A stretch of DNA of 43,585 bases from a virus. Its lineage: Duplodnaviria > Heunggongvirae > Uroviricota > Caudoviricetes. A program made the position numbers. Position 1 is the stretch's first letter. Each line of letters starts with the position of its first letter. Location of the stretch: IMG/VR virus record IMGVR_UViG_2529292909_000016, positions 1 through 43,585 of that record; one strand, written 5' to 3'. Shown here one piece after another: positions 15,001 through 21,000 of this stretch.

Positions 15001-18000
15001 CTTCAGGATGACAGCAAGTGCGAGATGATTGTTGGCATTGACCACTTCATGACGGCCTCGGCTAAGTATTGCGATATCCTGTTGCCCGACCTGATGCCAA
15101 CAGAGCAAGAAGACCTTATCTCTCATGAATCTGCAGGGAATATGGGCTATGTGATCCTCGCCCAACCCGCAACCTCAGCAAAATTTGAACGCAAACCCAT
15201 CTACTGGATGCTGAGTGAAGTCGCCAAACGCTTAGGACCAGACGTTTATCAAACCTTTACTGAAGGTCGCAGTCAGCATGAATGGATCAAATATCTCCAT
15301 GCGAAAACGAAGGAACGTAACCCTGAGATGCCCGACTACGAGGAGATGAAAACGACCGGGATCTTTAAGAAAAAATGCCCGGAAGAACACTACGTCGCTT
15401 TCCGCGCATTCCGTGAAGATCCACAGGCAAACCCGTTGAAAACACCTTCGGGGAAAATCGAAATTTATTCTGAACGACTGGCGAAGATTGCAGATACCTG
15501 GGAATTGAAAAAAGATGAAATTATTCATCCCCTTCCTGCGTATACCCCAGGTTTTGATGGCTGGGACGATCCCCTGCGGAAAACCTATCCACTGCAGTTA
15601 ACGGGCTTCCATTACAAAGCGCGTACCCACTCCAGCTACGGCAATATTGATGTGTTACAGCAGGCCTGCCCACAAGAGGTGTGGATCAACCCCATTGATG
15701 CTCAGGCACGCGGTATCCGTCATGGCGATACCGTGCGGGTATTTAACAATAATGGAGAAATGCTGATTGCCGCAAAAGTGACTCCGCGTATTCTGCCTGG
15801 CGTTACCGCCATCGGGCAAGGTGCGTGGCTTAAAGCGGATATGTTTGGTGACCGGGTCGATCACGGCGGCAGTATCAATATTCTGACCTCTCACCGCCCT
15901 TCACCGCTGGCAAAGGGAAACCCGTCGCACAGCAATCTTGTCCAGATCGAAAAGGTTTAAGGAGTAGCCCATGACCACACAATATGGATTTTTTATCGAT
16001 TCCAGCCGCTGTACTGGCTGTAAAACCTGCGAACTGGCGTGCAAAGATTTTAAAGTTGGTTACGTATCGTTTAAAATCAATTAGATAGCCCGTCATTTCT
16101 GCGCTCACACGTCCCAACATTGAAAAACATGCAAAGCTTTGTAAGCCGATGCAAAGCTTTGTGTGTCTCACTTTTGTCCCAATACCAATCCGAATCCACC
16201 CTTTGTCATCATTGAGAAATGGCAAGGAAGAAAAGGATGTTACTGCACGATTTGACAAATCCGCCAGAGCTATCGCATACTGATCGCACTGAACAAATAA
16301 GCGGTCTCCGCACCCGATAGCTTTGCGGCTTTTTTATGCCTGCAATTTGGCATAGTTACATCCGTACAAAGGTCGGGTGGAGAGGCGTAATACAACACCC
16401 GCAAGGGGAATATGCCCAGAGCTTCTTATTTGGCTCAGTTGACACCCGACCGCCAGCTACTAACTGGCGGTTATAAACTAAACAAATAAGGAGGTCATCA
16501 TGACCAGTCAACTCATCCCCGTATTCAACGGTTCTATCTCAAACCAAGCAGCCCTTCTATGCAATGCTCGCAATCTACACGCTTTCCTTGGGGTTGGTAA
16601 ACGCTTTGCATCGTGGATAACAGAACGTATTGCTGAATATGGTTTCGTTGAAAATCAGGACTATATGATTGCTTCCCAAATTCGGGAAGCAAAAGGTAGA
16701 GGCGGTCACAACCGCAAGGAATACCACCTCACCCTCGACACAGCCAAAGAGCTTGCGATGGTTGAACGTAACGAAAAAGGCCGCCAGATACGCCGCTACT
16801 TCATCGAGTGCGAAAAGAAACTTCGCAACATTCAGCCAGTACAAACTGAGCAGCAATTCACAGCCGAAGAAATCATCCTCCTTTGCTACATGCAGCTCTG
16901 GATGGAAAAAGCCCAGGACCTCAGCAAACACCTGTATCCCATTATGAAAGAGCTGAACTCCTCATACACGAACAAGCTGTATGACATTGCGTTTGAGACC
17001 ATCTACATGGTGACGAAGAACAGAGACGCGCTACTAAGGGAGGTAACACATCTCGACATGTCAAGTTCCGTTATCCAGCGGGCCATGCCAATGCTGAAAA
17101 GTCTGCGGGCAAGACAATTTGAATTCTGAAACCAAAGGAGCTTCGGCTCCTTTTTTCATGCCTGAAGGAAAGGAAAATGGCAGATATCATCGACAATGCC
17201 GCTGAAATCGAAGAATTGCAGCGCAATCTCTCCCTGCAAAAATACAAATCCGATAGTAATGCCCCATCTGCTACTCATTGTTGCGAGTGTGGCGATCCGA
17301 TAGATGAGCGGCGACGCCTGGCTGTTCGTGGATGCCGAGCTTGCGCCAGTTGCCAGCAGGATATTGAACTTATCAACAAACAGAGAGGTGTGAAGTGAGC
17401 ATAGACACCACTATAACGATCGATACGGCCCTCAACACAGGTCTGGCGCTTCTTGGTTATTTTTACATTATGTTCTGCGCCGGGCGGTGGCTATCGCTGT
17501 TGTTACTGAAAAAATGGAATAAATGCCGTAAGCAGGATCAACGCCAGAAGGCAATGAATGCGTTTTCCGAAGCCTTCGGGATTGACAGCATGGAGCCAGG
17601 AGGTCCAGCTCGCGTAATTAGCAGAGGTGACGTTGTAATTCTTGTATACCGGAGCGAAGAGAAAAATGAGCGAGATTAACTATCAGGTACTGCGTGAAAA
17701 GGCAGAAAAAGCAACGCGTGGTGAGTGGTCGCTCGAATATGGAGAGAACCGATTTGATGGTGATGATGCACTAATTCATCGCGAGGCTGCTGGATATATT
17801 CCCATTTGCAGAATTGAAGGAGCACATCCTGAAAGCGGTTTCGATGAAGATTTCCAAATGGAACAGCAGGCCAATGCTGAATTCATCGCCGCAGCCAATC
17901 CGGCTACCGTGCTGGCACTGCTGAATGAACGGGAAAGAAACCAGCAATACATCAAACGCCGCGACCAAGAGAACGAGGATATTGCGCTTACTGTTGGGAA

Positions 18001-21000
18001 GCTGAGAGTTGAGCTTGAGGAGACAAAATCAAAACTCAACGAGCAGCGTGAGTATTACGAAGGTGTTATCTCGGATGGGGGTAAGCGTATTGCTGAACTG
18101 GAGAAAAGCGAAGAGCAACTCATCAATGAGCGTGACCATGCTGAGTCCGCTTTAGATGATATGTACTTTGCAGCAACAGGTAACAGGCCGGAGTGGAGCA
18201 ACTGGTTCGGCTTTTCAGATGCTGTCGATGCCGTGGTTGACAGAATTGCTGATTTAGAAGCTAAACAATGCATTGAAGAGATGAGTAAACAAAGTTGCGA
18301 AGCTCGGGAGCGTGATTTGTTTGAATCATGGGTAATGCATTCAATTTGTATTTCCAAATCGACGCTTGAAGGATTGCGCACCGAAACTGGATACCGTAAC
18401 GCGACCTTATCAGGAACAGACTTCAACCGCATGTGGGAACAATGGAAATCTATCCGCGCCGCTGGCATTTCGCATCAAAGGAGAGTGAGATGGCGTTAAC
18501 ACACCGAGAACTCTGTCAGATTGCGTACAAGTTCCTTAAGCGCAACGGGTTCAAGGTTTGCTTTCATGACCGCTTTATAGCCGTAACCAGTACCGGAGAA
18601 CAGCCAGATGCTATGGGATTCAGAAATTCAGCATCATGCCTGATAGAGGCGAAGTGTTCTCGTGCTGACTTGTTGGCAGATAGAAAAAAGCGTTTCCGTA
18701 AAAATCCGTCTCTTGGAATGGGCGACTGGCGATTCTTTATTAGTGAGCCGGGAATTATTTCAATTGAGGATTTACCACCTGGCTGGGGATTACTTCACGT
18801 TGTTAACGGAAGAGTACGGAAAGTACATGGGTGGCCCAAGGGTAATTGCTGTTGGGGTAATCCTGACGATAAGCCATTTACTGGGAATAAGCAGGTTGAA
18901 TGCGATTACATGTTATCTGCATTAAGGCGCATGGAGTTGAGAGGGCACCTTAATGAAATATATGACGGTGTAATTGTTAATAAGAAAGAAGGAAACGCGG
19001 CATGATCACTATTACCAAAGAGCGACTACTGACAATCAAGCAGTGGCGCGAAACATACGGACCTGGTATCCGGTCGTACATCTTCTGCTGGTCTGCATAC
19101 GGCATCACCTCACCCGAAATTTTCCCCAGGAAGGGCACCTGCTGTTCCGGTATATCAATACCATTCAGCGATTTCACCGCCGCATCCGTGGTTTTGGAAA
19201 TGAAGCGCCCTGTCCCTCCGGAGATATAGTCAATCCAGAATTTCAGCGATTCCGGTGTGATATCCACCGCGCCGGGACGATACTGGCTGCCACCTGAGAA
19301 CGCATTCAGCCAGAATGCAAACGCCTTGTACGCTTCTGGCGTTGAACGTCTTCCCAGCTGGCTGTCAGGTTTTGGTGTACCAAACGGCATGTTCTCCTGG
19401 TAAATCTGCGCCCCCATGAAGTTTTCGTTCATGGCAAGATTCGCAAACGGACGCAGAATTGTCGGTGCTGCATTTTTCAGCAATGCCCCGGACAGCGTTT
19501 CCGACGTCTCACTGCCAATCGGGCTGAATGCCCCCAGGATACCACCGACAACATTACCGGCAGCACGGGACGCCGTCAGGTCACCAGCAGCCACACCTTC
19601 AGAGGTATGCCCGAGCAGGAAGAAAACGTTGTACCCGTAAGGCAGAGGAATACTCCAGTACTCTCCGGCCCTGCCCCCGAACATCGATTTCATAATGACG
19701 AGGTTACGCTCTTTCACATGATACGGCACCTTGTCGTACCAGTTAACCCCGTCATCATCCTCACCCGCCACACTGCGGTTAAGCGAGCCAAGCAGATAAC
19801 CCGCTCCCACAGCTGCAAGCGCGATTTTCTGCGGTACATTGAGATTCTTCCAGCGAAGGCGCTCCAGTAACGGCCCGTCGCCATTAAGATGTCCGAGCGT
19901 TCTCACCAGGTTTGCGGTCCCCTGAATGCTGGCGTTGGCAAACATATACAGCGAGTTCATCAGCGCTCCCTGCTCACCACGACGGTTAAAGTTCACCGTC
20001 ATGTTTTTGGCAAGAGATGCCGCCTGCTGGCGTGACAAACCGGCATCACGGGCGTGTTTATAGGCAGAAAGACGCAGAGCGTTTTCAACCGCGCCGTTGG
20101 CATCCTCGACCAGGTTCAGGAACGAATGCCATGCACCGATACTCTGGCCTTTCCATCCGCCCTTCGCCAGCGACACAAGGCGATCCATTTCCTTCTGCTG
20201 GCCTTCAAGGTCACCCATGTTAAACCAGCCGGTTTTACCTCCGTCCTCAACAAACTCTTTCCACACTTTCTGCCACTGTGCGCCTTTGCCCGTGAGGGTT
20301 TTACCCCGCAGACTTGCGTATACGGCTGACATGGCGGAACGGCTGTCTTTCACCACAGCCAGCGCGGATAAGTTATCCAGCCCTTTCAGTTTGCCGTCGC
20401 TTCTTCCCTGCTCAGCCTTCAGGTTCATCACCGCAGTCTGCACGTCACGGATGAAGTTACTGACCAGAAATTCCGGGTTATACGACGTGTTCACCGTTGC
20501 CAGGAAGCGGTTAACTTTCCCCAGCGTACGGATTACGGCGTTACTGGTTTCCGGCCCCATGTTCTTCATCGCACGCATCAGGCGCGGATCATGAAGTTTA
20601 ATGTAGTAAGTTTTGCCGTCCTTTTTGGTGGTGAAGTAGCGATCCGCCATCATTGCCATCGGCACAGGGCGCTCGACAACTTCGCGAATGGTTTCACCAG
20701 TTTCCTGGTCCTTGCGCTCTGCAATCACACGCATTGTATCCGGTCTGTCATCAGTGAATACCTGCCAGTAATCCTTGTCGGGATTATCCTGTACCAGTTT
20801 CAGGAAGGCGTTACCCACTTCATTTTTGCGATTGCGGATCAGCGATTCACTCAAATCCTGTATCGCCTGAGTGGAAGGAGACTGTGCGCGGGATGCACGC
20901 CCCATGGCCTGCTTACTTTCACGCCCGCCGATGGTGAATCCCTTGCCTGTACGTGGCTGTGACACCACACCGTCAACATCCTGCCCTTTCAGGGGGACGT

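Follow-up and report, generated by a model that had tools for sequence, protein, structure and literature searches.

What does a 171-codon open reading frame (ORF) encode when it lies between an ea22-like phage gene and the 3′ end of a giant convergent gene, and does either contact carry meaning? The question arises in a 43,585-nucleotide stretch of tailed-phage DNA (Caudoviricetes; positions 1 to 43,585 of IMG/VR record IMGVR_UViG_2529292909_000016, hereafter the window). The locus is the early accessory gene string, proximal to the attachment site (att), of a defective Sepvirinae-type prophage like those of POCJ13 and O104:H4, inserted in Escherichia coli ynfG. An initial annotation had read the 17666-19005 region as an ea22-like gene coupled to a protein resembling PD-(D/E)xK nucleases, ending in a 29-bp convergent overlap at 18977-19005; these ORFs and coordinates were confirmed in the ORF list and in the raw sequence. 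We consider it likely that the locus is explained by a predicted PD-(D/E)xK nuclease gene within an early gene string, with the convergent overlap as a deletion scar. The locus is otherwise ordinary.

Predicted fold and active site of the 171-aa protein

The gene for the predicted stand-alone nuclease (plus strand, 18490-19005; ATG 18490 to TGA 19003-19005) encodes a protein of the MmcB/Hjc-like branch whose motif residues 37-61 are EQPDAMGFRNSASCLIEAKCSRADL. AlphaFold (AF2) models made with 30 close homologues (predicted local distance difference test score, 79.8; predicted template-modeling score, 0.76) and with 84 diverse representatives (94.8 and 0.88) had the same topology: helix 5-18, strands 23-26, 41-45, and 48-54, helix 58-64, and strand 80-85. 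This is the alpha-beta-beta-beta-alpha-beta core of the superfamily, a four-stranded mixed beta-sheet flanked by helices. The predicted catalytic residues sit within it: D40 (codon 18607-18609) just before strand 41-45, which is core strand 2, and E53 and K55 (codons 18646-18648 and 18652-18654) at the end of strand 48-54, which is core strand 3. Conservation was read from the 84 diverse relatives, which are 34-61% identical. D40 is present in all 84, as are D60 and R81; E53, K55, and E37 are each present in 83, and residue 27 is acidic in 82. With its metal-binding and catalytic residues hardly varying among these relatives, the active site appears to be maintained. The resemblance to PD-(D/E)xK nucleases noted in the initial annotation thus withstood both a search for the restriction-endonuclease-like core, found in the two models, and a check that the D...ExK residues are kept in homologues.

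Structure searches pointed the same way. Foldseek against the PDB gave weak matches, the majority of the top-ranked ones being nucleases of the PD-(D/E)xK fold; structural neighbors included AF2093, SdaI, AF1548, PaqCI, Can2, XisH, NgoMIV, NucS, FokI, VRR-NUC, and Hjc. Against the viral models of BFVD there were 18 matches at an E value of ≤1e-3, and the named ones were MmcB-like DNA repair proteins. Among PHROGs, the 171-aa protein matched families of unknown function and, weakly, one labeled “DNA repair protein.” On these models and alignments, the 171-aa protein is very probably an active nuclease of the PD-(D/E)xK fold.

MmcB-like and Hjc-like nucleases are the nearest relatives

The nearest recognizable relatives of the 171-aa protein are the MmcB-like DNA-repair nucleases and, more distantly, the Hjc Holliday-junction resolvases. 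The profile of the 84 relatives aligned with PDB 3DNX at an E value of 1.8e-5, setting PD on “..DVMG” and “LIEcKvsrsDFlaD” on VIECKSSRADFQAD; fold and motif are closely similar in the two, which share a D...ECKxSRxDFxAD signature at 23% identity. We take 3DNX (SPO1766 from Ruegeria pomeroyi, an unnamed structure) to belong to the MmcB-like family PF06319. Like Caulobacter MmcB (PF06319), the members of the 171-aa family are stand-alone proteins of ∼150-170 aa with a PD-(D/E)xK core. The window protein had no match to PF06319 at an E value of ≤0.1 and so lies outside the family's gathering threshold, and weak matches were found in 24 of the 84 relatives (best E value, 2.9e-4). Two features set the family apart from MmcB: an additional conserved helix at the C terminus (E137, R146, R147) and a GMGxxRF/PxGWGLL block. 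MmcB is an SOS-regulated PD-(D/E)XK endonuclease that protects against mitomycin C, and protection against interstrand cross-linkers is a function known for the Caulobacter protein only (PMC9578287). Its gene belongs to the chromosomal SOS regulon (PMC9578287), whereas the 171-aa family is chiefly one of early regions in phages and leading regions in plasmids.

With archaeal Hjc (PF01870), the family shares small size, the PD-(D/E)xK class, and an E/D...D...ExK layout, and its phage genes adjoin other junction-processing genes such as RusA, NinG, and NinB. Weak Pfam matches to Hjc occurred in 49 of the 84 relatives (best E value, 1.3e-4), and the profile scored E values of 0.07-0.3 against Hjc structures. 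These matches fall below any family threshold, and the structural likeness is at the level of the core only.

The junction with the Ea22-like gene is a recombination-prone linker

The gene immediately upstream (plus strand, 17666-18499; ATG 17666 to TAA 18497-18499; 277 aa) encodes an Ea22-like protein. Its residues 2-146 cover positions 1-139 of the 139 in PF13935 (Ead_Ea22) at an E value of 2.4e-35 and 122.6 bits (cut-off, 27), passing the gathering threshold, and thus form an N-terminal Ead/Ea22 domain; a distinct C-terminal module begins at about residue 202. Ea22 has been described as a three-part, multidomain, highly diverse protein (PMC10834534, PMC7093339). The window protein is like lambda Ea22 and P22 Ead in its conserved N-terminal domain, coiled-coil-like middle, and swappable C-terminal module and unlike them in its place, beyond the att site of a Sepvirinae-type prophage rather than between exo and xis. 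A weak match to a “RecBCD inhibitor” PHROG (E value, 9.5e-8; residues 139-193) falls within the coiled-coil-like segment.

By blastp, residues 1-147 are 96.6% identical to POCJ13 gp76, and residues 1-201 are 92% identical to the homolog of phage EC.W1-9, with no similarity beyond in either comparison. DNA homology to POCJ13 picks up again at 18461. The C-terminal module of the window protein is thus other than those of POCJ13 and EC.W1-9, and its last ∼13 residues come from a shared intergene linker read in a frame other than theirs; no part of the protein varies more than the segment adjoining the nuclease gene. The same module precedes different downstream sequence in other E. coli genomes.

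These frames bear on where the two genes meet. The 171-aa ORF had been said to start inside the Ea22 stop, which proved incorrect for the window: the TGA within GTGAGATGG (18486-18488) is out of frame for Ea22, the in-frame stop is the TAA at 18497-18499, and ATG 18490 lies 10 nt inside the Ea22 gene, giving a 10-nt overlap (ATGGCGTTAA). The TGA is the true Ea22 stop in POCJ13 and EC.W1-9, because the C-terminal modules of these two bring a different frame into the shared linker. An AAGGAG Shine-Dalgarno sequence read from the DNA at 18478-18483 (plus strand) stands 6 nt ahead of ATG 18490. An alternative start at GTG 18433, giving a 190-aa form, was rejected; the N termini of homologs align to ATG 18490, which has the AAGGAG site. 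We conclude that the linker at 18455-18494 (∼40 bp), which holds the ribosome-binding site of the nuclease gene, is a recombination boundary and that the overlap of the two genes is ordinary operon packing there.

The convergent overlap lies beside a deletion joint

On its other side, the 171-aa ORF is overlapped by exactly 29 bp (18977-19005) by a 1,706-aa minus-strand ORF (18977-24097). Comparison with intact relatives was possible at the same chromosomal site. The genes flanking the phage part of the window are E. coli ynfE/ynfF, and the phage part sits in ynfG, as do Shigella phage POCJ13 (Sepvirinae) and a prophage of E. coli O104:H4. These two, POCJ13 in its gp76-gp75-gp74 ... gp71 genes, represent the intact form, with gene order and insertion site beside ynfF in common with the window. 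POCJ13 carries, in order, Ant, DUF4752, Ea22, the 171-aa protein, DUF551/EaA (927 bp), two small minus-strand ORFs, and a 2,793-aa LPD-domain gene; the O104:H4 prophage has the same layout and a giant gene of 2,783 aa. In intact relatives, the nuclease gene and the giant gene are separated by 1.1-1.5 kb that includes DUF551 and small ORFs.

By blastn, collinearity of the window with the two relatives holds up to 19068, and the match resumes 1,118 bp (O104:H4) or ∼1.5 kb (POCJ13) farther on. Lost with the missing stretch were DUF551/EaA, one or two small ORFs, and the final 92 giant-gene codons. According to the blastn break points and the POCJ13 flanks, the joint at 19068 has a single nucleotide in common with both sides. 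To its left remain the first 22 codons of DUF551/EaA (plus strand, 19002-19067; MITITKERLLTIKQWRETYGPG), identified by translation against POCJ13 gp74 and the DUF551-type protein of EC.W1-9; on the right, the giant gene picks up at a point 92 codons short of its natural end. A 75-aa ORF across the joint (19002-19229, plus strand) is a chimera made by the deletion, with the 22 native DUF551/EaA start codons followed by giant-gene antisense sequence.

The giant ORF itself bears the same mark. Its residues 1-1677 correspond to residues 1015-2691 of the 2,783-aa O104:H4 protein (99.76% identity), the 29 residues that follow (IPGPYVSRHCLIV...) have no counterpart, and 92 native residues are gone; the alignment to PHROG 616 likewise ends at residue 1677. 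The tail of 29 codons and a stop (minus strand, 18977-19066) thus arises by reading on in antisense through the DUF551 remnant and the 3′ end of the nuclease gene. The native part (minus strand, 19067-24097) holds LPD5, LPD1, MuF_C, and LPD38 polyvalent-protein domains, as identified by Pfam and by alignment to a WP_000331660-type protein. The other end is broken as well. Comparison with O104:H4 placed a second joint at 24113-24115, where 2,329 bp were lost with 3-nt microhomology and a shift of frame. This deletion parts an N-terminal fragment (minus strand, 23971-24810), which matches residues 1-260 of the O104:H4 giant protein by blastp and is out of frame past the joint, from the 1,706-aa ORF, which begins at an internal Met just past it. 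Judged by these alignments, the “giant gene” is a pseudogene fragment, an ORF in the mechanical sense only, and should be treated as a fragment of the 2,783-aa gene.

The C terminus of the 171-aa protein, by the same kind of comparison, is native, because EC.W1-9 and plasmids carry an identical protein; POCJ13 gp75 departs from it at three residues. The earlier suggestion that one of the two overlapping C termini is a junction artifact was therefore borne out for the giant ORF. Its reading of the overlap as a module junction of a mosaic prophage was not, since the overlap marks a strain-specific deletion with ∼1.1 kb missing relative to O104:H4 and ∼1.5 kb relative to POCJ13. We regard the deletion as strain specific because no record among 5,426 complete E. 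coli genomes and 50,697 phage records spans the 19068 joint; it was absent from the metagenome collection too. We conclude from these alignments that a 1.1-kb deletion left the 29-bp convergent overlap as its scar and that the overlap is not a native gene arrangement. In the proposed sequence of events, illegitimate recombination at 19068 through 1-nt microhomology would have removed the body of DUF551 together with the small ORFs and 92 codons from the 3′ end of the giant gene, and the truncated giant frame would then have run antisense through the end of the nuclease gene to a chance stop.

The window differs from the two intact prophages in more than this joint. Its nuclease gene is 97.5% identical in DNA to that of POCJ13 and its giant gene 99.9% identical to the O104:H4 copy, whereas the DUF551 body, the small minus-strand ORFs, and the 92 codons are absent, and five further deletions elsewhere separate it from the O104:H4 prophage. 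In the latter, the nuclease gene is frameshifted and the giant gene is not, the reverse of the window. The six joints relative to the O104:H4 ynfG prophage (99.9% identical) are at 19068, 24113-24115, 25917-25918, 34599-34604, 34971-34972, and 40999-41004, with losses of 1,118, 2,329, 2,021, 4,396, 3,821, and 44 bp, respectively, and microhomology of only 1-6 bp at each. By O104:H4 coordinates, the lost stretches include the terminase/portal and head-gene regions. The window prophage is defective and is decaying by repeated illegitimate recombination, as the four further joints, each with 1-6 bp of microhomology, indicate. The convergent overlap and the C terminus of the giant ORF are scars of this decay and are not to be read as biology.

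The nuclease family is widespread in phages and plasmids

A word search placed the family in 324 clusters at 90% identity, and a profile search placed it in 3,312 clusters at 50% identity. Close enterobacterial relatives repeat a cassette of Ead/Ea22, the 171-aa family gene (X), and DUF551 at differing genome positions: beyond att in Sepvirinae-type phages; between the replication genes and Q/terminase, as Ea22-X, in Klebsiella prophages and EC.W1-9, one such order being O/P...DUF4752-Ea22-X...NinE/NinG; and as erf-abc...Ea22-X-DUF551...xis in a P22-like prophage. Ea22-X also occurs on a 96-kb nonmobilizable E. coli plasmid that may be a phage-plasmid. Relatives at 64-67% identity lack Ea22, their arrangements being NinB-X-NinG in Lonsdalea; Dam, a Lar-like gene, X, and RusA in Providencia; and ssb-parB-psiB-psiA-X-hok in IncF leading regions.

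The plasmid copy is a 172-aa homolog (∼67% identity) in the leading region of IncF conjugative plasmids. It directly follows psiB-psiA, so closely that its start abuts the stop of psiA, and precedes hok/gef. It lies at 5977-6495 of locus L016 (plasmid pV085-c, NZ_AP014877.1) and at 4001-4519 of loci L014 and L015. By tblastn, 864 plasmid records match the family, of which 411 are conjugative; the psiA-adjacent leading-region position was read in three records only. The literature search returned nothing for the accession of the plasmid homolog, and leading-region papers yielded no mention of a nuclease neighboring psiA.

Neighbors were surveyed at 42 loci from different species in the closer alignment (A1), taking as upstream neighbor the nearest same-strand ORF by a simple ORF-picking rule. 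The upstream gene was Ead_Ea22 at 5 loci, NinB at 2, a DNA methylase at 3, and a Ppx/GppA-CHAD-HD protein (Acidobacteriota) at 7, and the downstream neighbors were equally varied. The start of the family gene mostly abuts or overlaps the preceding gene, whichever gene that is, and the contact is therefore ordinary operon packing. The coupling to Ea22 proposed in the initial annotation thus reduces to packing within a cassette found only in close enterobacterial relatives, the usual upstream gene being something else (NinB, Lar-like, PsiA, methylases); the linkage is local synteny in those relatives and not a system. Homologs at ∼35% identity are widespread in Acidobacteriota chromosomes (loci L053-L097, from Acidobacteriota/Terriglobia metagenome-assembled genomes, with matches at ∼4001-4440), which suggests a conserved chromosomal, nonphage context for this distant branch.

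Possible roles of the nuclease and alternative explanations

The fold, the conserved active-site residues, and the distribution of the family are observations. Beyond them, we infer that the 171-aa protein would be a Mg2+-dependent endonuclease preferring particular DNA structures. The mobile element would make it early, by translation from the strong AAGGAG site that the gene carries, and it would cut branched or damaged DNA intermediates in the element's own replication, recombination, or repair. We propose this role because the nearest relatives are MmcB and Hjc and because the family travels with NinB, NinG, RusA, Erf/Abc, SSB, and PsiB. By analogy with these, a structure-preferring early endonuclease acting on branched or damaged DNA of the mobile element is the role that we tentatively favor, at somewhat less than even probability.

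Several points weigh against the explanation as we have framed it. The window protein has no match in Pfam, NCBIfam, or PADLOC, and the nuclease activity of its family is a prediction from fold and conserved residues; the substrate preference comes only from the nearest folds and the neighboring genes. The contexts are heterogeneous, including chromosomal ones in Acidobacteriota beside the Ppx/GppA-CHAD-HD protein, and the leading-region place beside psiA fits an anti-defense or establishment role equally well. In the window remnant, the operon is severed from the phage early promoter, no promoter signal rose above chance, and the gene is at most putatively expressed. It is dispensable for lysogens, because it is annotated as frameshifted in at least two prophages, those of O104:H4 (locus L002, 4396-4574) and E. 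coli USMARC-50748 (locus L101, 2709-2887). Finally, the 19068 joint is known from one assembly, an IMG/VR contig that comes from an isolate genome and is 100% identical to the window. As a separate observation, the nuclease gene is intact in the window prophage, which is otherwise more damaged than the O104:H4 and USMARC-50748 prophages.

The main alternative in function is that the nuclease is an establishment or anti-defense factor, made first on entry and attacking a host defense component, host DNA, or a competing element. Plasmid leading regions concentrate anti-defense genes (PMC11541004), and the family gene directly follows psiB-psiA in the IncF leading region, its start abutting psiA, at the three positions read among the many matching plasmid records; in phages, its neighbors range from a Lar-like restriction-alleviation gene to Dam and further methylases. 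Yet the nearest named relatives are repair and resolution nucleases, nin and leading regions also carry plain DNA-metabolism genes (NinB, NinG, RusA, SSB), and the text of PMC11541004 as searched mentions no nuclease family beside psiA. Neither the Ea22-like nor the 171-aa protein matched a PADLOC defense-protein model at an E value of ≤1, although PADLOC models defense and not anti-defense proteins. We judge an establishment role rather unlikely. A dedicated two-protein module, in which the coupling of Ea22 and the 171-aa protein reflects a functional complex, is improbable. The adjacency does recur, in Stx/POCJ13-type phages, EC.W1-9, Klebsiella prophages, a P22-like prophage, and the 96-kb plasmid, with Ead_Ea22 directly upstream at 5 of the 42 species-level loci, and four proteins of 240-245 aa have both an Ead_Ea22 match and the nuclease domain. 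At the other 37 loci, however, the ORF picked upstream has no Ead_Ea22 match; the family stands beside NinB, PsiA, a Lar-like gene, TraC, and others where no called gene matches Ea22; the part of Ea22 adjoining the nuclease gene is its most variable and enters the junction in differing frames; and the nuclease gene carries its own strong ribosome-binding site. PD-(D/E)xK folds serve as non-catalytic binders in some other systems, and the 171-aa protein might likewise have kept the fold as a catalytically dead DNA-binding or regulatory protein. We hold this to be highly improbable in view of the near invariance of the metal-binding and catalytic residues at 34-61% identity. The hok/gef gene adjoining the plasmid copy had raised a toxin-antitoxin reading. 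This was set aside, since Hok/Gef forms a self-contained module of its own that the phage contexts lack.

For the overlap, two other accounts were weighed against the deletion scar. The 19068 joint and the five others could be assembly artifacts of the source draft genome, since genomes with several similar lambdoid prophages are prone to misassembly, and the joint sequence occurs only in the one identical IMG/VR contig and in none of the complete E. coli genomes, the phage records, or the metagenome collection. All six joints have only 1-6 bp of microhomology, however, whereas assembly chimeras form at repeats of at least k-mer length, and the flanks are collinear with and 99.9% identical to one O104:H4 prophage, as expected of a prophage that decays through one deletion after another; an artifact is accordingly quite improbable. 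That the overlap is instead a native, selected arrangement, either as a junction of mosaic modules or as genuine gene ends overlapping for antisense regulation, draws on ORF geometry only and is scarcely credible: in every intact relative examined the two genes lie 1.1-1.5 kb apart, homologs lack the overlapping giant-gene codons, and the giant gene was already broken by the frameshifting 2,329-bp deletion.

A small nuclease with an intact predicted active site is very common in enterobacterial temperate phages and also occupies the slot after psiB-psiA in the F-like plasmid leading regions examined. This spread makes the family a cheap, well-defined candidate for studying the first minutes of mobile DNA in a new cell, and the only lead of wider value from the locus is this uncharacterized nuclease family common to phage early regions and plasmid leading regions. 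A broader reading would make it a large unnamed family of early-entry nucleases, common to temperate phages (in nin, ea, and post-att regions) and conjugative plasmids (in IncF leading regions, joined to the end of the psiB-psiA operon), that protect or establish incoming DNA; an example of such a job may be the dismantling of DNA structures that trigger RecA or defense. We think this unlikely. If true, the family would be an unrecognized member of the establishment and anti-defense toolkit, not a generic repair enzyme.

Other genes of the string and the chromosomal flank

The intact order of the string is Ant, TraR/DksA, DUF4752, Ea22-like, the 171-aa gene, and DUF551/EaA. The Ant antirepressor gene (plus strand, 16500-17129; Pfam AntA, E value of 2.6e-26; P22_AR_C; PHROG 377, anti-repressor) is the first of this same-strand string near the ynfG attachment site, and the gene order there agrees with POCJ13 and the O104:H4 prophage. 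It is followed by a TraR/DksA-type zinc-finger gene (plus strand, 17177-17398; Pfam zf-dskA_traR, E value of 1.5e-7; PHROG 54) and a DUF4752 gene (plus strand, 17395-17679; E value of 2.6e-39 to Pfam DUF4752) whose 3′ end runs 14 nt into the Ea22 gene. When 15900-19400 was scanned for promoters and terminators, no signal exceeded the shuffled expectation, a result that is silent on expression.

The four 240-245-aa proteins with both an Ead/Ea22 Pfam match and the nuclease domain (P0009, P0091, P0093, and P0104, from Salmonella and others) may be true fusions or overextended gene calls. PHROG 9263 likewise has ∼61 extra N-terminal positions. In the chromosomal flank, window positions 1-12000 are 99.9% identical to several E. 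coli chromosomes, in matches that cover only 90% of the stretch. Upstream of ynfE/ynfF, the best E. coli matches have an IS30-family transposase, a site-specific integrase, and a 3′-5′ exonuclease-domain protein annotated near rspA/rspB, and positions 1-12000 may hold another small integrated element.

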